From assembly GCA_963767115.1 (NCBI GenBank), contig CAVYCR010000001.1, positions 2,430 through 66,429 on the forward strand: a stretch of 64,000 nt of DNA, in the 5' to 3' direction. The translations under genes were made by a program, and so were the position numbers. The notes under the pieces are model-generated. The model was not told the origin of the DNA and ran no database searches. It worked only from the letters and a program-made list of their open reading frames with translations. Below are positions 4,259 to 48,847 of this stretch, one piece after another. The number at the start of each line of letters is the position of its first letter. The first letter of the stretch is position 1. The stretch is from Candidatus Kaiserbacteria bacterium (GTDB lineage Bacteria; Patescibacteriota; Minisyncoccia; Phycocordibacterales; UBA2100).

Positions 4259-5260
4259 TTAGTTGCTGCCATCGAGCAGCGCGGTGATGAGATCGCTGTA
4301 GGAGATCCCCAGCTCCGCGATGAGCTTGGGGTACATCGAGATGTTGGTGAAGCCGGGCAGTGTGTTGATCTCGTTGAGGATGAAATGACCTTGCTCGTCT
4401 AGGAAGTAATCGATGCGCGCGAGGCCACTGCATTCTAGTACCGTGAATATTTTCTTCGACAGTTCCTGAATCTCCTCGATTTTCTCGGCTGATATATCTT
4501 GCGCCGGGATACATGTCTTCGATCCTTCGCTATCGAAATACTTCGCATCGTAATCATAAAACTCATGGCTGCCGGTGGGGACTACTTCGCCCGGCGGCGA
4601 TGCCTGCAAATTGCCCACTGAACTACTGCATCCGAGCACCGCGACTTCGAGTTCCCTTCCCCGCACCGCCTTCTCAATGATCACCTTCGTATCGTATGTA
4701 AATGCCGCATCGATCGCAGCGAGTAATTCATTCGCATCCTTTGCGCGTGTAATGCCGATCGAGGAGCCGAGATTGGCCGGCTTCACAAAAGCTGGTAATC
4801 CAAGCTCGCTTTCAACCTTTTGCGCAATACTTCCCTTTAACGACTCATATTCATGAGCACGAATCGTGATCCAATCAGTGACGAGGATGCCGTGCGAACG
4901 CGCGAGCTGCTTCTGTACGTCCTTGTCCATGCAGAGAGCCGAGCCGAGTACCTTGGAGCCGACATACTTCACGCCGAGCGTCTCGAAGAAACCTTGCATC
5001 GCACCGTCTTCACAATGCGGCCCGTGCATCACGGGGAAAGCGACATCAATGCCTTTCCAAAAACTGATTTCAACGGTTTCACCCTCGGTATCTCCCACAT
5101 TCTTTACGCATGCAAATTCCCCGCTCTCGTTTTGATACACCAGCTCGAGGTCGAAGCGTGCGCGGTCGATAGCAGCCGCCACGTTTTTGGCCGACATGAG
5201 AGAGACCTCATGCTCAGCCGAGCGTCCGCCGAAAACGAGTGCGACTCTCTTCTTAATCAT
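4259..5260 (-). CDS. ddl: D-alanine--D-alanine ligase
   Basis: 333 aa. VALVFGGRSAEHEVSLMSA, the ATP-grasp core and NEINTLPGFT are all present. Confidence 0.95.
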   Translation of the reverse strand: MIKKRVALVFGGRSAEHEVSLMSAKNVAAAIDRARFDLELVYQNESGEFACVKNVGDTEGETVEISFWKGIDVAFPVMHGPHCEDGAMQGFFETLGVKYVGSKVLGSALCMDKDVQKQLARSHGILVTDWITIRAHEYESLKGSIAQKVESELGLPAFVKPANLGSSIGITRAKDANELLAAIDAAFTYDTKVIIEKAVRGRELEVAVLGCSSSVGNLQASPPGEVVPTGSHEFYDYDAKYFDSEGSKTCIPAQDISAEKIEEIQELSKKIFTVLECSGLARIDYFLDEQGHFILNEINTLPGFTNISMYPKLIAELGISYSDLITALLDGSN

Positions 5261-18443: not shown

Positions 18444-18476
18444 TAAGTGATGAAATACCCCCTCATCACGATTTTG

Positions 18477-40196: not shown

Positions 40197-42386
40197 TTAC
40201 TGCACGACGACGTTCGTAGTAGTCGCGGTAGTTTGTCCACCGAGCGTTTGGCACGTCAGCGTGTAGGCGGTCGAGGTCGAGAGCAATGAGGTCGTCGCGA
40301 CGCCACTTACACTCGTGAAGCTTGCATTAGCAGACGTAAAGGCGCTGTCTTGTGCGCTTGATGCCACGCACGAATTCATGCCCGCAGTGACCCATGCGAT
40401 GACCGAAGAGGTGCCCGGTGTAGTCGTTGCAGGGTACGCGACGAGGTCGATCATAGGCTGGTTGATGGCGACGGAGCACTGCGCACCAGTCATCTGGCCC
40501 GCGAGATTCCCGCAGGCGAGCGTGTAGGTCGCGGTGTTGTCACCTTGCGGAGGTGTCGACATGAGTGCCGTCGTAGTACCTACGAGACCAGCCGTGGGGA
40601 AACCGCTGCCGCGCGCCGAGATCGCGTTGGTGCATGCGTACGAGATCGATACACTTTGCCCGACGTCGACAGTCGACGGTGCACACGAGAGCTGTGCAGT
40701 GGTGCTCGCGGTTACACTCGCATTCCCGTTCGTATTTGAATTGTTGGCGGTGTTGGTAGTGGCGCACTGCCATCCGGTCACACAACCGTTGTTGCTGGCC
40801 GAAGTCTGCTGCCACGTCCCTGTCGTGCACTGCGAAGCAGTGGGCTGTGTCGGCGGTTGCGGACAGATGCTCCCGTCGGTGCCGTAGCCGTAAGGCGCTG
40901 TGCTTTGGTTGGATGCGGCACAGCTATTGCCATTGCAACCATATTGACACTGCTGCATCGCTTGCTGCACGCAGTTGTTCTGCTGGTAATAGAGCATGTT
41001 GTTGCTGCAAATATATTGTGTAGAGCAGGTGCCGGGAGTCTGCGCGACGGTGTTGCCGGGCGTTGCGATGCCGTTGTTCACCCCGCTGATGAGGCTCGGT
41101 GCCACACCTTTGAGGAGACCCGTGAGAAACGAAGCGCCGAGCGACTCTACCGTGCCAAGCGTACTGTTGCCGTTGGTGGTCGATTTGCTCGTGCTGCAAT
41201 TCCAGAGATTGAGAATGCTCGGGGTACATGCAGCTTGCGCAGGCGCAGCAGGAGCCGCCGGCGCAGGCGCTGTCGCCGTGCATGGAGTGCCGGATTGTCC
41301 TGCAGGACACGGTGCCTCTGGTGCTGTATCGCTGCCACCGCCACTACATCCTGCTGCCGGATCACCACCGCCGGCACACGGCTGGAGCTGAGCGATGCCA
41401 TTATTATCAAAAGTATCCGCGGGAGCTTGTGAGAAATGATCGGGCGTATCTGAATTCGGCGGGCAGGCTCCTCCCAAGTCGCACGGCCGTACAGGCGGCT
41501 GAGCCGTATCAACATCTGAGAGGCTTGGATTAGTAGCTACGGAACCACTGCCCGCACTCGGCACAGTGACTGTCGGCGCACAACCAGATGCAGTGGTATC
41601 ACAAGGGGCACTTCCCTGTTGAACTGCGTTTGCGAGAGCTGACAGCTGTGTATCGCCACCGGGAACTTGCTGATTTACTGAAGATACGTAGTTACTCACG
41701 CTCTGTGCGGCTGTCGGGCTCAACGCTTGTGTCAGGAACTGCGCCTCGTTTGAAGTACCGATGGTAATTGCCGCCTGATTATTGGCGATCAAAGTTGCGC
41801 CGACGACAGTCGCCGGCCCCGATACGGTATTTGTGAGCGTACTCAAGGTGGTCTGCAGGCATTGTGCTCCTCCGACAGAGCCGCAGTTGACCACAAAACA
41901 TCCGCTCGCACTCCCCTGCTGTGCAGAAGCGAGGCTTTGGCTCAACATCGTGGATGGCACGCAATACTGCACGACGCATTTGTCAGGCTGCGAAAGCTTA
42001 CAGGCAGCAGAGCCGGCGTCCGGCCCCGGCATCATGGTGCCCACGTCTTTCGGATTTGCCTGTGGCGTACCGGCTTTGGGGTCGGGCACCCAGCACTTCG
42101 CGCCGCCCGGCGGGCTTTCTTGCGGATTCTGTACGGCACCTGTTGACTCGTCGATCGTATGTACCGAGCCGTTCGCGCATGCGTCATTTATGCTTCCCGA
42201 CGAGGCTCCGCTGCTTGCCGCGCTTGCTTGGGCAAGCAGACTCTCGTTGGTACTCGCGGCAATCGAGCCGGTCGCTTTGCCGAGATACTGGATCCCGAGG
42301 GCGACAGTGCCGAGCACCGCCACCATAACGAGCGCGGCAAGAATCGAAGCGCCGCGACCACTCTGCCGCATTCGAGGCAAGTACAT
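40197..42386 (-). CDS. large secreted Cys/Thr/Ala-rich surface protein with C-terminal Ig-like modules
   Basis: 729 aa with an N-terminal signal anchor and a low-complexity body with many Cys. Two C-terminal about-80-aa modules end in the T.Y.L.C pattern. Confidence 0.75.
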   Translation of the reverse strand: MYLPRMRQSGRGASILAALVMVAVLGTVALGIQYLGKATGSIAASTNESLLAQASAASSGASSGSINDACANGSVHTIDESTGAVQNPQESPPGGAKCWVPDPKAGTPQANPKDVGTMMPGPDAGSAACKLSQPDKCVVQYCVPSTMLSQSLASAQQGSASGCFVVNCGSVGGAQCLQTTLSTLTNTVSGPATVVGATLIANNQAAITIGTSNEAQFLTQALSPTAAQSVSNYVSSVNQQVPGGDTQLSALANAVQQGSAPCDTTASGCAPTVTVPSAGSGSVATNPSLSDVDTAQPPVRPCDLGGACPPNSDTPDHFSQAPADTFDNNGIAQLQPCAGGGDPAAGCSGGGSDTAPEAPCPAGQSGTPCTATAPAPAAPAAPAQAACTPSILNLWNCSTSKSTTNGNSTLGTVESLGASFLTGLLKGVAPSLISGVNNGIATPGNTVAQTPGTCSTQYICSNNMLYYQQNNCVQQAMQQCQYGCNGNSCAASNQSTAPYGYGTDGSICPQPPTQPTASQCTTGTWQQTSASNNGCVTGWQCATTNTANNSNTNGNASVTASTTAQLSCAPSTVDVGQSVSISYACTNAISARGSGFPTAGLVGTTTALMSTPPQGDNTATYTLACGNLAGQMTGAQCSVAINQPMIDLVAYPATTTPGTSSVIAWVTAGMNSCVASSAQDSAFTSANASFTSVSGVATTSLLSTSTAYTLTCQTLGGQTTATTTNVVVQ

Positions 42387-42543
42387 AGCCCAATAATGCT
42401 GCTTTACCGGCTCATCCGCAACGCAGATACTGGATTTTTTGTGGACAATGGGTGGAAAAAGCGTTGATAGGCTGTGGATAAGATGTGGTTAAAACAACAG
42501 CTATCCCTTGACGTGGTAATACTGGGGTGTATACTTCCTGTAT

Positions 42544-43452
42544 ATGAATAAGAAGTACGGCGTTACAAGCCTTCGCAAACAATTCCCCACAGATCAAGCC
42601 TGCGTCGAATTTTTGTTTGATACATTGCACAGCCGCGAGTGCTCCTGTGGTGGTACCTATTCCCTGATGTCGAATGGGCTCAAGAAGGATGGTATGACGC
42701 CCCGTCTGATGCGTACTTTTCAATGTTCCAAGTGCCGCAACAAGATATCGCCTACGGCGGGTACGATCTTCCACAAGAGCGATACACCCCTTACCCTCTG
42801 GTTCCACGCCATCATGGTGTTTTCTAACGCCAAGAGCGGGATTTCGGCCAAACAGATGCAGCGCGATCTCGAAGTTACCTACAAGACTGCCTACCGCATG
42901 CTCATGCTCATAAAGAAGGCGCTCAAGCAGGATAAAGACCGATTGAGTGGCGACGTTGAAATGGATACAGGTTTCTTTGGCGGCAAGGGTAACGGCGGCA
43001 AGAATAACGAAAACATCGGCAACGTCATGAGGAACAAAGGTATTGTCTTCGCCGCGGTAGAACGCGGCGGCCGTATGAAGGCTGAGGTTATGCCCGACGC
43101 CACCGCGAAAAGTCACAAAGACTTCCTTATGAAGAATGTGTCAGTTACCGGAACACGCCTTCTTACTGATAGCGCAAACCGATACGATAAAATTGCTGTC
43201 GGTTATGACCGCCATATGGTCGATCACCACCGCAAAGAGTACGTACGTGGGGATATTCATGTGAATAATGTGGAAACCTTCTGGGCGCACGTAAAGCGCT
43301 CGATCAAAGGCACCCACAAGGTTGTCTCTAAGCAGTTTTTGCAGGCTTACCTTGACGGTTTCGTTTGGCAGTACAACGCACGCACTTGCAGCGACGCCGA
43401 GCGCTTTGGTCGCCTTCTTGGTGCCGTATTGCAGCCTGCAAGACAGCTTTAA
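42544..43452 (+). CDS. IS1595-family (ISXO2-like) DDE transposase
   Basis: N-terminal zinc ribbon (CSCGG...CSKCRNKISPTAGTIFH) and a DDE_Tnp_IS1595-like core (VEMDTGFFGG...LLTDSANRY...HVNNVETFWAHVKRSIKGTH). Confidence 0.9.
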   Translation: MNKKYGVTSLRKQFPTDQACVEFLFDTLHSRECSCGGTYSLMSNGLKKDGMTPRLMRTFQCSKCRNKISPTAGTIFHKSDTPLTLWFHAIMVFSNAKSGISAKQMQRDLEVTYKTAYRMLMLIKKALKQDKDRLSGDVEMDTGFFGGKGNGGKNNENIGNVMRNKGIVFAAVERGGRMKAEVMPDATAKSHKDFLMKNVSVTGTRLLTDSANRYDKIAVGYDRHMVDHHRKEYVRGDIHVNNVETFWAHVKRSIKGTHKVVSKQFLQAYLDGFVWQYNARTCSDAERFGRLLGAVLQPARQL

Positions 43453-43747
43453 TATTTTGTGTTCTCATGCGTTATCCACAGTTTTTTCAGCGGTTTCTAG
43501 TCCTCACATACTACCACAGACATGGTACCCTATTAAGGCGACGCTAGGTGATAGGAGTTTTGGATTACTAGGATTTATCAATGGGCTCGTGAGTGGTAGC
43601 GGCGGCATCCGGGGAAACCTAGGTGTCGCAATCGAAGGGAAGGATAAATCAATAAGTATTCATTCTTCTCCCGGTGCCGTCGCTATCTCCCGCGAGCTCT
43701 TTTATTTTGCCTGAGAGTGCGTGCGCAAGCGACACTCTGCCTCAAAC

Positions 43748-43872
43748 AAAAAAGCACCAACTTGGAGTTAGTGTGGTGTCGCTAGCTTAATTTGCAAAGC
43801 CCCCGACCCGTAATCGGGAGAACTGGGAGTATGACCCAGGCGACACCCCACTGCCTCTAAAGGTGCTTTTTT
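43748..43872 (+). ncRNA. candidate structured RNA: tRNA-like cloverleaf (43776-43850, encoded CCA) capping a long rod helix
   Basis: Acceptor GTGTCGC/GCGACAC, spacer TA, D arm GCTT-AATTTGCA-AAGC, anticodon arm CCCGA-CCCGTAA-TCGGG, variable AGAA, T arm CTGGG-AGTATGA-CCCAG, then C and CCA. Outer helices AGTGTG/CCCACT, TTGGAG/CTCTAA and AAAAAAGCACC/GGTGCTTTTTT. Confidence 0.5.
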
Positions 43873-43956
43873 GCTATGGACAGACCAGAACCAGGGCTGT
43901 CATTACCAATGTATACCAATTTTTCATGGTTTCAAAATGAAAAGTGGATATCCTGT

Positions 43957-44121
43957 TTATATCCCATCTTCATTATCATTCATACCAATTCGCAATTTAA
44001 GCTCCTCTAATTCACTATTTATCACCTCCATGAGCTCGTTGGTATAATTTCTCTGCTCAAATATCCCGATTGTTAATATGACAATCCACACCCCTGCGAC
44101 GATATCAAATGTAAGCTGCAT
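43957..44121 (-). CDS. possible small membrane protein (54 aa) inside the IS passenger region
   Basis: MQLTFDIVAGVWIVILTIGIF is one TM helix, followed by an amphipathic acidic tail. It is below the ORF-track cutoff and has no clear Shine-Dalgarno sequence. Confidence 0.3.
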   Translation of the reverse strand: MQLTFDIVAGVWIVILTIGIFEQRNYTNELMEVINSELEELKLRIGMNDNEDGI

Positions 44122-44242
44122 AGATGAAGATTATCATTTTTGAGGGATATAGCTTACTTCCTTGTTAGTACCACGTCAGGGGATAGGTGTTGTTAAAACA
44201 GAGATGGCGACGAGACGCGCAATGCAAAAACAGTGAGTCGTG

Positions 44243-47200
44243 CTACCCCACGACAAACGATCGACTGATCACCCCTTCCTCGGGCGCAACCTCCGTCTCG
44301 AAGACCTTTGTTGATTCTTCCGCGCCGGAGCGCTTATCTATCTCGACATGGTAGACGCCGGGCACGACGAGGACGAAGTACCGGCCATAGGCATCAAGGA
44401 CCTTGGTGGCAATGAGATTGTCCTTCGCGAAGACCTTAACGATACCAAAGGAGAGCGGATAACCGTCGCGTGTGCGCACCGTACCGTACAGGCGCGGTCT
44501 ACCTATCTTGAGCCGGAGTCCGACGAGAACGACATACATGAGAACAACGCCTATATTGAGGGGCGACTGTCGCACAATGAGCTGGTAGAGGGAGAACGCA
44601 AGACCTCCCACGAAGATCAGGTCAGTAATGGCGAGGAGCACGGGGTCGAGGTAGCTCACGTAGCGCAGCCGGTCGCTCGCGCGCTTCTCTACTTGGTTCC
44701 AGTCGGTCTCGACGGGATCCATCGGAATGTCTCTTCGAACGGTGCCGTCATCGCCTACCGTGAACGCGCCGCCAAAGTAGAGGTCGTTGTATATAATATC
44801 GTGATCGCGCCCGGAGAGATATTTCGAGGGGAAGGTGTAGTGCGTCTTCGACGCCTCCATCCGGTACGTGCCAGGCGTAGCGAGAAAGCCGTAACGGCCG
44901 TCGAGATCGGTGATGGCATCCCTGATACGTTCGCCGCGCTCATCGAAGAGCACTACATAGGCCGGGTCGATAGGCTCCTTGGTGACGGAGTCATAGACCG
45001 TCCCCCAGGGAAAGCGGCGTTTGCGCGACATAAAGAGTCCTATGAACGTATTGGTTCCTTTGTTGGCGGTATGGGCGATATTGAGAAGCGAGAACGGAGC
45101 GCCTGAGGAGGCCACAAGGACAGACGCGAGCGAGACGAGAACACCGAAGCTCTCGAGAGCACGTGCTGCTACGGGGACAGTAGGAACGGGAGGCGGAGAT
45201 GCGTTTGCCGCGCCCGTACCGGCAACTACGGGACTCGGGACAGTCGTTGTGACAGGCGTGACCACAGGAACAGGCGTGGTGATTGGCGGCGTTTGCGGCG
45301 GCGCAGTGGTTCCGGGGGACGAGGACGGCGGCGTCGGAACAACAGGAGAATTCGTCGCGGGAGGCGTGGCCGGCGGTGCGGGGCTTGATGTAGTCGTCGG
45401 AGGTGGAGTCGATGTGGTCGGTGGCGGTATCGGCTGGACGACAATTACCGGCGGGGTTATGGGCTGCGTAACCGGCGGCCCGTTGGAAGGAGGCGCGACA
45501 ACAGTAGGAGCTGGTGGAGCGGGAGACGCGGGTGATGATCCGCACGGGCCGGTGGTGAACGTATCATCGTTGCCGTAGCCGGCGCTGGCACCGTTGATTG
45601 CATAAGCGGCATAATGGTAGGTGGTGCCGCAGGAGATGATGGAGTTGGTCCAGATGTCGCCGCCATACGCTACTGCAGTGAGATGCGTGCCATCGGAAGA
45701 GGAAACGATGGATTGCCAGTTTTGTCCGCTCGCGCTCGTGCCAGCGGTCTCGTCGGTCCAGGTGGCGCCGGAGTCGGTAGACGTCCAGATGTCGCCATTT
45801 TGAGCGTTAGCAGCCAGATGTGTGCCATCTACTGATGAAGTGATGCTATACCACTGTTGATTTGCAGCGCTCGTGCCGGCGGTTTCGTCGGTCCAGGTAA
45901 CACCGCTATTGGAAGAAGTCCAAATGTCGCCATTATAGGCATCGGCGGCGAGGTGCGTGCCGTCGATGGAAGATGCAATAGCACTCCAATTCTGCCCGCT
46001 CGCGCTCGTGCCGGCGGTTTCGTCGGTCCAGGTAACGCCGCTATTGGAAGAAGTCCAAATGTCGCCGTTGCTATCTTCAAAAGCCGCGAGGTGCGTGCCG
46101 TCGGAAGAGGAAGTGATAGAGGTCCACTCGAGGCCGCTCGCGCTCGTGCCGGTGGTTCGGTTGATCCAGGTGATACCGCTGTTGGAAGAGGTCCAGATGT
46201 CGCCGTTACTCACGACTGCCGCGAGATGCGTACCGTCGGCGGATGAAGACACGGCATACCACTGTTGATTTGCAGCGCTCGTGCCCGTGGTTCGGTTGAC
46301 CCAGGTGACGCCGCTGTTGGAAGAGGTCCAGATGTCGCCGCCATACACAACTGCTGCGAGGTGCGTGCCGTTGGAAGATGCGGTGATGGAATTCCAATTC
46401 TGTTCGCTTGCGCTCGTGGCTATCGTTTCGTCATTCCAGAGTGCGCCGGAGTCGGTAGAAGTCCAGATATCGCCGCCGTAGACGACCGCGGCGAGATGCG
46501 TGCCATCGGCTGATGAAGATACGGCATACCACTGCTGGTTTACAGCGCTCGTGCCGGTGGTCTCGTCGATCCACGTGGGGTTAAATACATCCGTCGAAAA
46601 TGAACTGGCTGCGAAGTCGCCATTGGTCGTCGTCGTAGCACCATAGGCAGTGGTAAGGCCGTATATGAATCCTTCGGCAGTCGCATCATATCCTTGTATT
46701 GAGGTGATCTCGCCGTTAAGTTGAGTGCTGGTAGCCGTGGGAAAGCTTGCAGCGTCCGTAACGACCGTTGGCGGCGGGTACACTCTACCGATAGCGATGT
46801 TGCCGCCGCTAACCGCCACCAATACCGACGCGTCGGAGGACATCGCTATCGATCCCGCAGAGTTACCTAGAATTCCGCTGCATGGAGATGCTACGATGCA
46901 GCCGTATTCTCCATTGACCCAATATGCTCCGGTATCATCGGATAAAAAGATATTGCCCTGGGTACCGATCGCTGCCAGTCTGGTACCATCAGAAGACGAA
47001 ATTATGGAGGTTCCATTGTATGGGAAGCCGGCTTGATTCGTCCAGGTGACACCGGAATCATCAGAGGTCCAAACGCCGTAGGCACCGGAGTCAACTTCAG
47101 CAGCGAGATGCGTGCCGTCGGAAGAGGAAGTGATAGAGGTCCACTCGAGGCCGCTCGCGCTCGTGCCGGTGGTTCGGTTAATCCAGGTGACGCCGCTGTT

Positions 47201-48847
47201 GGAAGAGGTCCAGATGTCGCCGTCGAACACTACCGCAGCGAGATGCGTGCCGTCGGAAGATGAGGTTATTGAAAACCATGTCTGTCCGCTCGCGCTCGTG
47301 CCGGTGGTTCGGTTGACCCAGGTGACGCCACTGTTGGAGGAAGTCCAGATGTCGCCACCTCCGTATGATGCAGCAGCCAGGTGCGTGCCGTCGGCGGAGG
47401 AAATGATGCCGCCGTTGCTAAATTGGCCACTGGCGCTCGTACTCGCGGTTTCGTCGTTCCAGGTGAGGCCGGAATTACTCGAAATCCAAATGTCACCGTC
47501 CGAGTTGTTTATCGCCGCCAGCCTTGTCCCGTCTGCCGATGAAGTGACGGCGGCCCAATTATTATTGGCTTCGCTGGTATTCACAGTTTCGTCCGTCCAC
47601 GTGGCCCCGGTGTCGGCTGAAGTCCAGATATCTCCTCCCCAGGCAACTAATGCAAGATGCGTACCGTTGGCGGAGGACGTGACCACCGTTGAAGCGATGT
47701 TCCCGTCTTCATTAGATATGCGTCTAAGCCACGTCACGCCTGCATTAGACGAGGTCCACAGGAACCCCCCGAGAGCGGCGGCGGCGAGATGCGAGCCGTC
47801 GGCGGAAGATGCAATGGACGCCCAAACTTGACCGCTCGCGCCGGTGCCCGTCGTTTTGTCGGTCCAGGTAACTCCGGAGTCGGTGGAGACCCAAATATCG
47901 CCGACATCTACTGCAGCCGCGAGATGCGTGCCATCGGAAGAGGCAGTGATCGAAATCCAATTCTGTCCGCTCGCACCGGTGCCCGTAGTTTCGTTGGTCC
48001 AGGTGACACCAGAGTTGGTGGAGACCCAGATGTCTTCGGTGCCATTATTGGTAGCCGCCGCGAGATGCGTGCCGTCAGAGGATGAAGTGATCGACACCCA
48101 AGGTTGGTTGCCTGCACTCGTGCCGGTGGTCCGGTCTATCCAGGTGATACCGCTGTTGGAGGAAGTCCAGATGTCACCGTTATTCGCGACTGCTGCGAGA
48201 TGCGTGCCATCGGCGGAAGATGCGATGGAGGTCCAGGTTTGTCCGCTCGCGCTCGTGCCGGTGGTTCGGTTGACCCAGGTGACGCCACTGTCAGAGGAAG
48301 TCCAGATGTCGTCATCGCCACTCTCGACTACCGCCGCAAGATGTGTGCCGTCGGAAGAGGACGTGACGGAGATCCAGTATTGTCCGCTCGCGCTCGTGCC
48401 CGTGGTTTCGTTGGTCCAAGTGACACCTGAATTCGCGGAAACCCAGATGTCACCGGGAAATGTCACTGCCGCAAGATGCGTGCCGTCGGCGGAGGATGCG
48501 AGTGAACTCCAGGCTTGTCCGCTCGCGCTCGTTTCAGTAGTCTCGTTCGTCCAGGTGGCGCCACTATCAGAGGAGGTCCAGATATCGCCGGTAGTATCGC
48601 CTACAATACTCATATCGGGATCATTTGCAGCCACCAGATGCGTGCCATCGGCGGAGGATGCGATGAAGGTCCACATCTCTGGACTGGGGGCCCGAATAAG
48701 CGTGTAGGCCCAGTCATATCCCAAAGCCGCAACCATCGACAGCGGGAGAAGTGAGACCGCGAGCAGCGCGATATATGGTGCCACCTTCACTCCAAGGAGA
48801 TTCCGCAAATGACCGAGCAGATCCCGCTTATGTGCTGAAGTGCGCAT
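44243..48847 (-). CDS. giant surface protein: about 20 BNR/Asp-box-type beta-propeller repeats, Pro/Thr linker, TM segments and C-terminal carboxypeptidase-regulatory-like domains
   Basis: 1534 aa. The unit W.SI.SS.DGTHLAA....GDIWTS.NSGVTW..(E/R)T.GTSASGQ recurs about 21 times by eye. A PPxT-rich linker follows. The C-terminus has RIRDAITDLDGRYGFLATPGTYRMEA and DAYGRYFVLVVPGVYHVEI. Confidence 0.85.
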   Translation of the reverse strand: MRTSAHKRDLLGHLRNLLGVKVAPYIALLAVSLLPLSMVAALGYDWAYTLIRAPSPEMWTFIASSADGTHLVAANDPDMSIVGDTTGDIWTSSDSGATWTNETTETSASGQAWSSLASSADGTHLAAVTFPGDIWVSANSGVTWTNETTGTSASGQYWISVTSSSDGTHLAAVVESGDDDIWTSSDSGVTWVNRTTGTSASGQTWTSIASSADGTHLAAVANNGDIWTSSNSGITWIDRTTGTSAGNQPWVSITSSSDGTHLAAATNNGTEDIWVSTNSGVTWTNETTGTGASGQNWISITASSDGTHLAAAVDVGDIWVSTDSGVTWTDKTTGTGASGQVWASIASSADGSHLAAAALGGFLWTSSNAGVTWLRRISNEDGNIASTVVTSSANGTHLALVAWGGDIWTSADTGATWTDETVNTSEANNNWAAVTSSADGTRLAAINNSDGDIWISSNSGLTWNDETASTSASGQFSNGGIISSADGTHLAAASYGGGDIWTSSNSGVTWVNRTTGTSASGQTWFSITSSSDGTHLAAVVFDGDIWTSSNSGVTWINRTTGTSASGLEWTSITSSSDGTHLAAEVDSGAYGVWTSDDSGVTWTNQAGFPYNGTSIISSSDGTRLAAIGTQGNIFLSDDTGAYWVNGEYGCIVASPCSGILGNSAGSIAMSSDASVLVAVSGGNIAIGRVYPPPTVVTDAASFPTATSTQLNGEITSIQGYDATAEGFIYGLTTAYGATTTTNGDFAASSFSTDVFNPTWIDETTGTSAVNQQWYAVSSSADGTHLAAVVYGGDIWTSTDSGALWNDETIATSASEQNWNSITASSNGTHLAAVVYGGDIWTSSNSGVTWVNRTTGTSAANQQWYAVSSSADGTHLAAVVSNGDIWTSSNSGITWINRTTGTSASGLEWTSITSSSDGTHLAAFEDSNGDIWTSSNSGVTWTDETAGTSASGQNWSAIASSIDGTHLAADAYNGDIWTSSNSGVTWTDETAGTSAANQQWYSITSSVDGTHLAANAQNGDIWTSTDSGATWTDETAGTSASGQNWQSIVSSSDGTHLTAVAYGGDIWTNSIISCGTTYHYAAYAINGASAGYGNDDTFTTGPCGSSPASPAPPAPTVVAPPSNGPPVTQPITPPVIVVQPIPPPTTSTPPPTTTSSPAPPATPPATNSPVVPTPPSSSPGTTAPPQTPPITTPVPVVTPVTTTVPSPVVAGTGAANASPPPVPTVPVAARALESFGVLVSLASVLVASSGAPFSLLNIAHTANKGTNTFIGLFMSRKRRFPWGTVYDSVTKEPIDPAYVVLFDERGERIRDAITDLDGRYGFLATPGTYRMEASKTHYTFPSKYLSGRDHDIIYNDLYFGGAFTVGDDGTVRRDIPMDPVETDWNQVEKRASDRLRYVSYLDPVLLAITDLIFVGGLAFSLYQLIVRQSPLNIGVVLMYVVLVGLRLKIGRPRLYGTVRTRDGYPLSFGIVKVFAKDNLIATKVLDAYGRYFVLVVPGVYHVEIDKRSGAEESTKVFETEVAPEEGVISRSFVVG

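Follow-up and report, generated by a model that had tools for sequence, protein, structure and literature searches.

A non-canonical tRNA-like element with a tRNA-His-type acceptor end carried as cargo by an IS1595-type insertion sequence

Introduction

Several groups of natural tRNAs are known that depart from the canonical form. Irregular tRNAs with G-1 and a GGU anticodon are charged by E. coli HisRS and do not decode ACC in E. coli (Mukai 2017, NAR 45:2776, PMC5389517); the same authors linked irregular G-1 tRNAs to toxin-antitoxin loci, and allo-tRNA(UAU) to transposable elements (PMC5389517). Allo-tRNAs have serine identity and highly diverse non-Ser anticodons, and some of them are active in translation (PMC5389517; review PMC7609411). 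In Staphylococcus, a non-proteogenic tRNA-Gly with altered D and T loops and weak EF-Tu binding is used outside the ribosome and is still aminoacylated (PMC7826273). As to possible carriers, insertion sequences of the IS1595 family with passenger DNA have been described (Siguier et al. 2009, as cited in PMC12561309), and an 8-bp target duplication is typical for the family (PMC12561309).

Here we describe a tRNA-shaped element at 43776-43850 of the window, by which we mean the whole 64,000-nucleotide stretch of a Candidatus Kaiserbacteria contig (CAVYCR010000001.1) that was analysed. A first-pass annotation made from the sequence had read it as a non-canonical, tRNA-shaped cargo in an IS1595-type element, and the boundaries and target duplication of that element reported below support this reading. 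It had also remarked that no structured RNA was known for IS1595 elements, which agrees with our finding no description of a tRNA or tRNA-like passenger in the searchable literature. Related copies of the insertion sequence (IS) are referred to by their locus numbers (L002, L217 and so on).

Results

As expected for the IS1595 family, the carrier element (1,696 bp, 42496-44191) encodes a DDE_Tnp_IS1595 transposase, ends in terminal inverted repeats and is flanked by a target duplication of 8 bp. The duplication, read directly, is GTTAAAAC at 42488-42495 and is repeated identically at 44192-44199. The left inverted repeat (AACAGCTATCCCTTGACGTGGTAATA, 42496-42521, + strand, PWM 29.8) and the right one (44166-44191, - strand, PWM 25.8) are 85% complementary over 34 nt. 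A promoter-like TTGACG-16-TATACT at 42508-42535, with its -35 box inside the left inverted repeat, stands before the transposase gene (42544-43452, + strand, 302 aa; PF12762, E = 1.3e-30), for which 2,744 homologues were found. The first-pass annotation had placed the tRNA-like element on the transposase strand and between IS1595-like inverted repeats; both statements are correct, and the perfect 8-bp duplication adds to the second. Because the element lies inside a 1,696-bp IS with such a duplication, it has moved as cargo.

Directly 3' of the transposase stop codon is a degenerate sequence that resembles the right end of the IS, followed by TTATCCACA (43456-43480, + strand; 13/20 matches to the right-end core). 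This segment, whose minus strand has TGTGGATAA at 43472-43480 and which can be aligned in L002 and L082, may be what remains of the original IS end. The recurrence of TGTGGATAA had raised the idea that the IS targets DnaA boxes, and this was rejected, the motif arising where the duplicated GTTATC-type target meets the CAC of the IS end. Farther on, within the cargo that is shared among copies, folds and a long-hairpin alignment reveal a long branched hairpin, one arm of which is capped by GAAA, and then a T-run (43583-43709, + strand). The window, L002 and L217 all keep this T-run and the motif G(G/A)GAAACCT, and the hairpin is a 3' element of the transposase unit that resembles a terminator. 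A T-box-like reading of the RNA upstream of the cloverleaf had no Rfam support and was set aside. The cargo also includes a 54-aa ORF with one hydrophobic segment (43957-44121, - strand), the reality of which is unproven; it has no Pfam or PHROG match and no counterpart was seen in L002. Pfam and PHROG searches of the cargo ORFs did not point to any function and detected no toxin-antitoxin family.

The body of the element (43776-43850, + strand) is an exact cloverleaf with stems of 7, 4, 5 and 5 bp. Its acceptor stem (GTGTCGC/GCGACAC, 7 bp) is wholly Watson-Crick and is followed by TA at positions 8-9; the D arm has the stem GCTT/AAGC and the loop AATTTGCA; the anticodon arm has a 5-bp stem and the loop CCCGTAA, with C33 and the anticodon CGT; the variable region is 4 nt long; and the T arm (CTGGG/CCCAG, loop AGTATGA) is succeeded at the 3' end by discriminator C73 and CCA. 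All 21 stem pairs are Watson-Crick, despite the rewritten loops. Compared with canonical elongator tRNAs, the stem and loop sizes, positions 8-9 and the 7-nt anticodon and T loops are as usual, while G18-G19, T54-Psi55-C56 and U33 are absent. The earlier description of this geometry was accurate in every listed feature, the outward helices included, as was its remark that the conserved loop identities are missing (no GG in the D loop, AGTATGA in the T loop, C33). For 43748-43872 the MFE and centroid structures from RNAfold agree in giving the cloverleaf with its outward helices, at -59.1 kcal/mol versus -33.2 +/- 3.9 for 200 shuffles (z = -6.64); none of the 200 folded as well, so that the shuffled control proposed at first pass leaves the real fold far more stable. 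The extensive pairing claimed there also stands, although the figure of more than 45 bp in about 125 nt was marginally high, the MFE containing 44 pairs in 125 nt.

The tRNA detectors divide on this element. ARAGORN calls a tRNA-Thr(cgt) at 43776-43850, whereas Rfam RF00005 gives no match to it either at gathering (29 bits) or, on a 1-kb slice, at E <= 10; a genuine host tRNA-Leu reaches 49 bits in the same search mode. Across the region Rfam returned no known family, only a weak match to DUF805 and, on the upstream hairpin, a spurious alignment of microRNA type.

Leader and trailer sequences clamp the body. The 5' arm (43748-43775, + strand), as paired in the MFE, consists of AAAAAAGCACC, a 3-nt spacer and TTGGAGTTAGTGTG, and the 3' arm (43851-43872, + strand), seen both in the MFE and as inverted repeats, of CTGCCTCTAA, an A and GGTGCTTTTTT, which forms the T-run. 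The G at 43775 is G-1 and pairs with C73 (43847) in the MFE. The same clamp frame occurs in the window, L002, L217 and, inverted, L009; the clamps of L298 (14 bp) and L232 (its own) have different sequences. Two G.U pairs occupy identical clamp positions on the tRNA-sense strand of the window, L002 and L217, and inspection of the sequence places G.U pairs there in the inverted L009 copy too, and hence the helix is specific to the tRNA-sense strand in all of these. An encoded CCA is common to the window, L217 and L255b, with L002 having CAA in its place. As CCA and G-1 are both base-paired in the window precursor, the CCA with the leader, maturation of that precursor is uncertain.

This arrangement invites a reading in which the element acts purely in cis, as a bidirectional terminator or insulator, or as a signal for stability and for processing by RNase P/RNase III at the end of the transposase unit, the tRNA shape being only a stable scaffold in its loop. 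An A-run, an 11-bp stem and a T-run are arranged symmetrically, the "loop" being a 103-nt structured insert, hence the absence of a plus-strand call from a simple terminator scanner; the minus-strand scan does find a terminator-like site at the clamp. The module lies 170-330 nt past the transposase stop codon in most copies, and is inverted in L009, L232 and L212 with the outer clamp retained in L009. Neither in the window nor in L217 could a promoter be recognised between the clamp and the terminator-like hairpin that precedes it, a gap of only ~12 nt in L217, so that expression of the tRNA element would depend on read-through. However, a terminator needs no cloverleaf, and here the D, anticodon and T stems are all kept by compensation and the acceptor identity nucleotides, CCA and both odd loops are conserved. 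The helix is tRNA-sense-specific through its G.U pairs even in the inverted copy, and a separate terminator-like hairpin is already present 3' of the transposase gene. In L255b, moreover, a promoter-like TGCTATAGTAAT box lies 10 nt upstream of the tRNA and an ordinary terminator downstream, with no clamp. We regard a purely cis-acting role as distinctly unlikely.

An orthologue of the element was found in L217 (4130-4203), the transposase of which is 67% identical to that of the window. It has the same frame and clamp sequence, and its D loop (AGTTGCA against AATTTGCA) and T loop (AGAATGC against AGTATGA) share UUGCA and AGWAUGM respectively with those of the window. Both copies have G-1:C73 and CCA; the L217 anticodon is AGT, and this element too has no match to the Rfam tRNA model. 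Many of the stem differences between the two are compensatory. Between the window and L002, 13 pairs are changed on both sides with 97% of cells paired, and over all three copies the number rises to 16, the inner helices being 93-100% paired as against 39-52% in slid controls; these values come from few sequences, the window-type members found being two close ones and one distant one (L255b). A comparison of homologous IS copies had been recommended with the first-pass annotation, and in the window, L217 and L002 it shows stems kept by compensation. Since two homologous copies keep the structure through such changes, the cloverleaf is real and not a chance fold. Pattern scans added only chance matches: 120 in viral contigs for the flank pattern TTGGAGTTAG..CTCTAAA (L084 onward to L203, all noise), 8 without a cloverleaf in the metagenome scan for GCACC..TTGGAGTTAG..CTCTAAA, which was too strict as the orthologue reads TTGGAGTTAT, and, in two further viral scans, 0 for a relaxed clamp pattern and 2 for a D-loop/T-loop pattern.

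These comparisons bear on whether the element is a decaying pseudogene, that is, a host tRNA beside an insertion site that was taken up through a new right end and has drifted since without function. The degenerate inner right end 3' of the stop codon does suggest cargo gained by end replacement, cargo content is very variable among relatives, and the cargo tRNAs of L262, L065 and L298 look damaged. Drift would nevertheless hardly rewrite the loops while leaving 21 Watson-Crick pairs, nor would the orthologue share the rewritten loops and differ in its stems by compensated changes. The clamp frame, further, is conserved in four ISs with different tRNA bodies, and drift leaves unexplained why all cargo tRNAs, and essentially no neighbouring host tRNAs, are mismatched. 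Decay seems very unlikely to us. The earlier suggestion of a tRNA-derived relic is therefore retained as to tRNA derivation, for which the His-type acceptor end speaks, and not as to decay, the odd loops and compensated stems being conserved.

A G-1 paired with C73 provides the major determinants for HisRS. The string GGTG...CACC-C is invariant in the window, L217, L255b and the host tRNA-His (18474-18549), and the acceptor end of the element, with G-1, G1-U2-G3/C70-A71-C72 and C73, is the same as that of the host tRNA-His; L255b also keeps a His-like D arm. Because the acceptor-end signature of bacterial tRNA-His is kept as in the host gene, the element is tRNA-derived and, judged by sequence, probably of the tRNA-His lineage. 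It has the encoded G-1:C73 of a bacterial tRNA-His and lacks the GUG anticodon, reading CGU; L217 has AGU, yet GUG at positions 35-37. In E. coli, ThrRS identity involves the acceptor pairs G1:C72 and C2:G71. Among such tRNA-Thr features, G35-U36 and G1:C72 are present in the window element, pair 2:71 is U:A and not C:G, and the paired G-1 is atypical for a tRNA-Thr.

Cargo is highly variable among the relatives of this IS, comprising a 290-aa ORF, other ORFs or nothing, and blastn among cargo regions joined only L081 and L083. A tRNA is carried by 9 of ~38 close copies and about three quarters have none, so the IS can dispense with it. The closest transposase relatives (L081, L082, L083, L215, L216, L300-L302 and L304) have other cargo and no tRNA, L006 is a minimal copy of 986 bp lacking one, and L303, from the same organism and identical over 2.2 kb, adds nothing. 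Every cargo tRNA examined is aberrant, combining a Ser-, Leu-, Ala- or Arg-type body with a foreign or damaged anticodon arm. Ser-type bodies (G73; L003, L008, L212, L255a) have the anticodons CCT, TAT, ATC or CTT; a Leu-type body (A73) has CCA; L298, with G3:U70 and A73, is of Ala type and its anticodon arm is irregular; and L002, L232 and L297 have Arg-type bodies and the anticodon ACT or GCT. Apart from the window type, they score 42-59 bits as tRNA. The anticodon loop CTACTAA, with its ACU, is identical in L002 and L232 although their stems differ. Read by hand, 8 of the 10 seven-nt anticodon loops combine U33 with a purine at 37 and look decoding-competent; L262, with a 4-nt anticodon loop, and L065, with an insertion of ~33 nt, cannot decode as their loops are unusable. 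The ~26 tRNAs outside the ISs at the same loci look ordinary, except for one upstream call in L046 with a 4-base anticodon. The window element is one of many aberrant tRNAs in the cargo slot of these ISs and not an IS-specific structured RNA, and carrying tRNAs whose body no longer matches the anticodon arm seems to be a habit of this IS group. The cargo tRNAs differ in predicted amino-acid identity, and no single role fits all.

The same survey weighs on the idea that the RNA serves the transposase as a cofactor, with a guiding, bridging or regulatory task like that of the bridge RNA of IS110 or the omega RNA of TnpB. Within the IS, a structured non-coding RNA does adjoin the gene for the transposase, and in the window, L002 and L217 the two share a strand. 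Against this, a guide or bridge RNA would be expected in nearly every active copy, only the above minority of close copies has the RNA and minimal ones such as L006 do without, its orientation and position vary, no Rfam family was matched, and by eye the variable loops show no complementarity to the IS ends or target. The 8-bp duplications of L002, L005, L007, L009 and L010 also share GTTATC/GATAAC, although L002 carries an ACU tRNA, L009 a CCA tRNA and L005, L007 and L010 none; this argument rests on only two tRNA-carrying copies, and the window duplication GTTAAAAC differs. The guide-like or target RNA raised at first pass is accordingly disfavoured, and we hold a cofactor role of any kind to be extremely improbable.

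Discussion

The explanation that we favour, and which in our judgement stands about evenly between right and wrong, is that a tRNA gene of the tRNA-His lineage has diverged strongly, is still functional and rides as an IS1595 passenger, and that its chargeable product would act in trans. A precursor would be transcribed on the transposase strand, its leader and trailer pairing into a ~30-bp helix that ends in the T-run and that would serve as terminator and probably also as a processing stem. The product would keep the parts that allow charging independently of the anticodon, namely G-1:C73, G1-U2-G3/C70-A71-C72 and CCA, the identity set of bacterial HisRS, while the anticodon would have turned to NGU, that of a Thr codon reader, position 33 to C, and the elbow of D and T loops would have been rebuilt (UUGCA/AGWAUGM). 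With the HisRS identity parts kept while anticodon, position 33 and elbow changed, a tRNA-sized RNA that can be aminoacylated would be expected, most likely with histidine and possibly with threonine through G35-U36; the window RNA is probably still chargeable. In trans it may act as a "non-proteinogenic" aminoacyl-tRNA that decodes poorly or not at all, or else as a missense decoder. Among other roles proposed at first pass, that of a decoy is possible; for a primer we found no reverse transcriptase or other support.

A rival reading is a deliberate missense tRNA, matured, charged with histidine via its acceptor end, accepted by EF-Tu and the ribosome and inserting His at ACG, with other cargo tRNAs doing likewise at foreign codons with Ser, Leu, Arg or Ala and the IS serving as vehicle for mobile modifiers of codon meaning. 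Charging of Ser- and Leu-type tRNAs is independent of the anticodon, and all class II cargo tRNAs are Ser- or Leu-type bodies with foreign anticodons. The U33 and purine 37 in most seven-nt anticodon loops (8/10), the CTACTAA loop shared by L002 and L232 over differing stems, and the NGU common to the window, L217 and published G-1 tRNAs all point in this direction, as does the insertion of Ser in E. coli by allo-tRNAs with non-Ser anticodons (PMC5389517). However, the window copy has C33 and is without G18, Psi55 and C56, the published G-1/GGU tRNAs are charged without decoding ACC in E. coli (PMC5389517), and a usable anticodon loop is missing from L262 and L065. Nor is the IS itself recoded: a recoded transposase gene was considered and rejected, its conserved His positions being ordinary His codons in the standard code. 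Constitutive missense would also be costly to the host. Overall we think deliberate missense decoding unlikely.

On a wider scale, we tentatively propose, as a conjecture that is more doubtful than not, that this IS1595 subgroup of Patescibacteria-type genomes and ~40-kb viral contigs is a dedicated vehicle for tRNAs whose identity and anticodon are uncoupled, acting as mobile modifiers of codon meaning that can pass horizontally, or as mobile suppliers of aminoacyl-tRNA outside the ribosome; the window RNA, with its new elbow motif UUGCA/AGWAUGM, would be the most derived among them.

This transposon family appears to move aberrant, structurally maintained tRNAs between the genomes and phages of ultra-small bacteria. 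There is an annotation gap here, as the most derived members, the window RNA and that of L217, are missed by the Rfam tRNA model. If they are charged, they would be mobile missense tRNAs or mobile non-ribosomal carriers of amino acids: the former would offer a horizontal-transfer route to codon reassignment or programmed mistranslation, and the latter would point to tRNA-dependent chemistry new for Patescibacteria. If not, they would be only a curiosity about DNA acquired by an IS. The group also makes a compact natural test set, one frame with varied bodies and anticodons, for the requirements of charging, EF-Tu and the ribosome, and the rebuilt elbow conserved in two copies may interest tRNA engineers as a scaffold.

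How the locus compares with known systems can be set out from carrier to cargo. The carrier resembles known IS1595 elements in its DDE_Tnp_IS1595 transposase, terminal inverted repeats, 8-bp duplication and variable passenger region. The cargo resembles bacterial tRNA-His in G-1:C73 and G1-U2-G3/C70-A71-C72, and departs from it in having CGU instead of GUG, no G18-G19, no T-Psi-C, C33 and no Rfam tRNA score. The Staphylococcus tRNA-Gly is our working analogy, but it is chromosomal, keeps its cognate anticodon and has known users, the Fem transferases; no users of that kind were identified for the window RNA. Allo-tRNAs parallel the Ser-type cargo tRNAs of L003, L008, L212 and L255a. They are defined by an 8/4 or 9/3 acceptor/T branch and a long variable arm, however, whereas those Ser-type cargo tRNAs have ordinary 7/5 branches and the window element is class I, 7/5 (8/5 with G-1:C73), with a variable region of 4 nt, and so falls outside the definition. 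The irregular G-1 tRNAs (Mukai 2017), compared by their description, are alike in G-1 and the Thr-box NGU anticodon, and the GUG at positions 35-37 described there is found also in L217. Those tRNAs are polycistronic, come from Acidobacteria-like contigs and in part have an 8/4 structure, while the window element is a single clamped gene in an IS1595 element of a Patescibacteria-type genome, with a 7/5 structure plus G-1, rewritten D and T loops and C33.

A tRNA-like RNA within a leader-trailer helix

The RNA at 43776-43850 (+) is a tRNA by structure, with loop sequences that are not tRNA-like. It reads GTGTCGC TA GCTT AATTTGCA AAGC C CCCGA CCCGTAA TCGGG AGAA, followed by CTGGG AGTATGA CCCAG GCGACAC C CCA. 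The cloverleaf proposed here by the first-pass annotation is borne out by the sequence, by ARAGORN, which calls tRNA-Thr(cgt), and by RNAfold, whose MFE and centroid structures for 43748-43875 are this same cloverleaf tipping a leader-trailer helix (the clamp, 43748-43872). The Rfam tRNA model is silent, giving no match at the gathering threshold and, for a 1-kb slice, none even at E <= 10. Shuffled controls, which the annotation had suggested along with these searches, leave the real sequence far more stable (MFE -59.1 kcal/mol; mean of 200 dinucleotide shuffles -33.2 +/- 3.9; z = -6.64). The annotation was also right about extensive pairing, although its count of more than 45 bp in about 125 nt was slightly too high, the MFE structure having 44.

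The host tRNAs of the window are ordinary, since five score 58-70 bits in Rfam with canonical T arms (GGTTCGAATCC) and tRNA-Leu(GAG) at 20520-20602 (-) reaches 49.2 bits in a permissive search of a 501-nt slice. The latter was absent from the gathering-mode search of the whole 64-kb window, a speed-filter artefact, and was rejected as an odd tRNA.

The carrier element and its passenger region

The RNA lies in a 1,696-bp unit (42496-44191) with a gene for a 302-aa IS1595-family transposase (42544-43452; PF12762, E = 1e-30) and terminal inverted repeats at ~42496-42521 and 44166-44191, the left one containing a promoter-like TTGACG-16-TATACT. By direct reading, a perfect 8-bp direct repeat, GTTAAAAC, bounds the unit (42488-42495 and 44192-44199), and 8 bp is the usual duplication size in the IS1595 family (PMC12561309). 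Inverted repeats and duplication surround the whole unit, and therefore the RNA moved together with the transposase, in agreement with the annotation's view of it as IS1595-like cargo.

Among loci with related transposases in other genomes and contigs (L numbers), a position-weight scan with the end-sequence core CTATCCCTTGACAACATAA located both IS ends in many, and the 8-bp duplications beside them conform to NNGTTATC or GATAACNN. The group strongly prefers such targets (junctions including L002, L005, L007, L009, L010, L220 and L222), for example CAGTTATC in L002 and L005, GATAACTA in L007 and L010, and GATAACCT in L009, whereas the window IS duplicated GTTAAAAC. Joined to the IS end CAC, the target duplication gives junctions that read TTATCCAC and so resemble a DnaA box. 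L212 holds two tandem copies (right end 4438-4458, next left end 4473-4493), and an AI-2E transporter gene is interrupted by the IS in L298 and L299, which indicates recent activity. Close transposase relatives (54-63% identity) are common on contigs classed as viral (L218-L232, IMG/VR, ~14-52 kb), and phage capsid genes on its contig adjoin the L217 copy, so this IS group is in circulation among the phages of these bacteria. The window IS sits between two very large ORFs encoding probable surface proteins: 44243-48847 (-), 1,534 aa with a Pro/Thr-rich linker and the unit 'SSxDGTHLAA...GDIWTSxxSGxTW' repeated in tandem more than 25 times, and 40197-42386 (-), 729 aa, Ser/Thr/Gln-rich and without a Pfam match.

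The passenger region is very variable among relatives. L006 (986 bp) has none at all, L081 and L083 carry a 290-aa ORF (uncharacterised PHROG), further relatives have other ORFs or non-coding DNA, and L219-L229 and L004 have their passenger DNA upstream of the transposase rather than downstream. That the window RNA acts as a transposase cofactor is hardly credible. Right after the transposase stop codon, at 43456-43480, stands a degenerate right-end-like sequence and then TTATCCACA, with alignable segments in L002 and L082; the degenerate end suggests that the passenger was gained through the use of a more distal right end once an older one had decayed. At 43583-43709 there is a long branched hairpin, one arm GAAA-capped, with a T-run after it, and its motif G(G/A)GAAACCT plus T-run is kept in the window, L002 and L217. 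The hairpin fits no Rfam family, its sole match, to a microRNA-type family, being rejected as a spurious alignment. Downstream of the RNA, still within the passenger region, a 54-aa ORF (43957-44121, -) with one hydrophobic segment matches no family and has no equivalent in L002; it may encode a small membrane peptide or may be meaningless.

Homologous copies and selection on structure

L217 (transposase 67% identical) carries an orthologue of the window RNA, GTGACCA TA GTTT AGTTGCA AAAC T CTCGT CTAGTGA ACGAG CGTC and then GCGGG AGAATGC CCCGC TGGTCAC C CCA, in an almost identical clamp and likewise without an Rfam tRNA match. In these two, the only close members found of the window type (n=2), the unusual D loops (window AATTTGCA, L217 AGTTGCA) and T loops (AGTATGA, AGAATGC) are conserved and stem differences are compensated. 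L002, from a Kaiserbacteria MAG (transposase 55% identical), shares with the window the frame AAAAAGCACC...TTGGAGTTAGnn-tRNA-nnACTGnCTCTAAA(A)GGTGCT, at the same distance past the stop codon, around a tRNA body that differs in having canonical D and T loops and the anticodon ACT.

Counted on the named structure, 97% of cells are paired between the window and L002 and 13 pairs are altered on both sides, apparent breaks in the outermost helix of L002 being a 1-column alignment shift; adding L217, in the compensatory-change comparison the annotation had proposed, brings the altered pairs to 16. Across the three, the cloverleaf and inner clamp helices are paired at 93-100%, against 39-52% for slid partners. 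Read on the tRNA-sense strand, two clamp positions are G.U pairs in all three, and by inspection also in L009, which has the same clamp with its tRNA inverted relative to the transposase; the clamp helix is therefore selected as RNA, from that strand. The clamps of L298 (a perfect 14 bp) and L232 are unrelated in sequence to that of the window. The homologous copies prove selection on the structure of the window RNA. A drifting pseudogene is accordingly very unlikely, and of the tRNA-derived relic that the annotation had entertained, the derivation stands, probably from tRNA-His to judge by the acceptor end, but not the drift.

Probable derivation from tRNA-His

Aligning the window RNA, its L217 orthologue, the distant member L255b and the host tRNA-His (18474-18549, minus strand), we found G-1 G1 U2 G3 ... 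C70 A71 C72 C73 invariant in all four. For HisRS the dominant identity element is G-1:C73, and the acceptor end of E. coli tRNA-His reads GGUG...CACC-C. In L255b the D arm, too, is still His-like and the T loop is near-canonical, and this member bridges tRNA-His and the window type. CCA is encoded in the three cargo RNAs, where the host tRNA-His reads CAA. Their anticodons are CGU (window), AGU (L217) and AGA (L255b), none of them GUG; L217 has GUG at positions 35-37. The window RNA joins a Thr-box anticodon to an acceptor end of His type, and its elbow, the region of D-loop/T-loop contact, is rebuilt.

Aberrant tRNAs across the IS group

A tRNA occurs in the IS or its cargo zone in 9 of about 38 distinct IS copies with transposases at least 49% identical (window, L002, L003, L008, L009, L212-214, L217, L232 and L298/299), and in the more distant L065, L255 (two tRNAs), L262 and L297. 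It lies inside both located ends in the window, L002, L008, L212, L217, L232 and L298; the right end of L009 was placed by eye (12/20 match) and that of L003 was sought and not found. All these IS-borne tRNAs are aberrant. Those of class II, at 51-57 bits as tRNA, have a tRNA-Ser body (in L003, TGGCnGAGTGGTyTAAnGC, long arm, G73) with the anticodon CCT in L003 (4634-4724), TAT in L008 (4628-4716, -), ATC in L212 (4134-4219, -) and CTT in L255a (L255 4141-4226, -), or a tRNA-Leu body (GAATTGGTAGAC, A73) with CCA in L009 (4132-4213, -). Their anticodons are foreign, and charging by SerRS or LeuRS would make missense tRNAs of them.

Class I body types, assigned from short signature motifs and literature identity rules, comprise tRNA-Ala in L298 (4120-4192; G3:U70, A73, irregular anticodon arm) and an Arg-like D arm in the remainder: L002 and L232 (..GGATA.., anticodon ACT, the loop CTACTAA in both, and a central mismatch that their anticodon stems share), L297 (anticodon GCT), L262 (3349-3420, -; a 4-nt loop replaces the anticodon loop) and L065 (3955-4055, -; a ~33-nt hairpin inserted in the anticodon loop). 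The cloverleaf is intact apart from the anticodon loop in L262, L065 and L298. The Ser, Leu, His and Ala bodies encountered are of the types charged independently of the anticodon, and Arg with C35 and U36 is also tolerated. Cargo tRNAs other than those of the window type all clear the Rfam threshold for tRNA (42-59 bits), and L298 and L255b share an upstream promoter-like box, TGCTATAGTAAT.

Outside the ISs, about 26 tRNAs from the same loci and the window have body types matching their anticodons, with a single exception in L046, where ARAGORN calls a tRNA (2701-2777; Rfam 55 bits) whose anticodon (agcg) has four bases; a distant IS1595-type transposase follows ~220 nt downstream of it. Ordinary tRNA-Leu and tRNA-Ala lie 30-90 nt upstream of the transposases of L012 and L022.

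Expression and function

The gene for the window RNA is conserved, specifies a cloverleaf set within a leader-trailer helix that closes with a T-run, and is mobile as IS cargo. Because no promoter fits between the terminator-like hairpin at 43583-43709 and the clamp (a gap of ~12 nt in L217), its precursor would be made by read-through from the transposase unit, and the clamp may end transcription and then be taken off by RNase III or RNase P, plus trimming. A role confined to this, as a terminator or processing element acting only in cis, we consider rather improbable. The product would then be aminoacylated, most likely with His, and we give about an even chance to a conserved, trans-acting, probably chargeable tRNA-His derivative.

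On decoding as such the evidence points both ways: the NGU anticodon is conserved, 8 of 10 cargo loops have U33 together with a purine at 37 and the ACU loop is conserved between L002 and L232, but the window copy carries C33 and has lost the G18/Psi55/C56 contacts, some cargo tRNAs lack an anticodon loop and published G-1 tRNA1 species gave a negative decoding result (PMC5389517). Frank missense decoding is a separate claim, and one that we regard as doubtful.

Comparison with known systems

In the searchable literature we found no tRNA passengers in IS1595 elements, no such clamp frame and no such elbow motif, in line with the annotation, which knew of no structured RNA for the family. Mukai et al. 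described the nearest published counterparts of the window RNA, allo-tRNAs and irregular G-1/GGU tRNAs. Their G-1 tRNA1 species combine G-1 with a GGU anticodon and with GUG at 35-37; E. coli HisRS charges these RNAs better than it does tRNA-His, and in E. coli they did not decode ACC (PMC5389517). Compared by description only, the window RNA and its L217 orthologue are closely alike in G-1 and NGU, and L217 shares GUG at 35-37; the 8/4-9/3 feature that defines allo-tRNAs is absent from the window RNA. Staphylococcal non-proteogenic tRNA-Gly is charged, yet withheld from EF-Tu and the ribosome through D/T-region changes (PMC7826273), so a bacterium can keep charged tRNAs apart in this way. Mukai et al. 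suspected ties of irregular tRNAs to transposable elements and toxin-antitoxin loci (PMC5389517). Irregular tRNAs on mobile DNA, with identity and anticodon uncoupled, are thus known already; what is new is their systematic association with one IS group.
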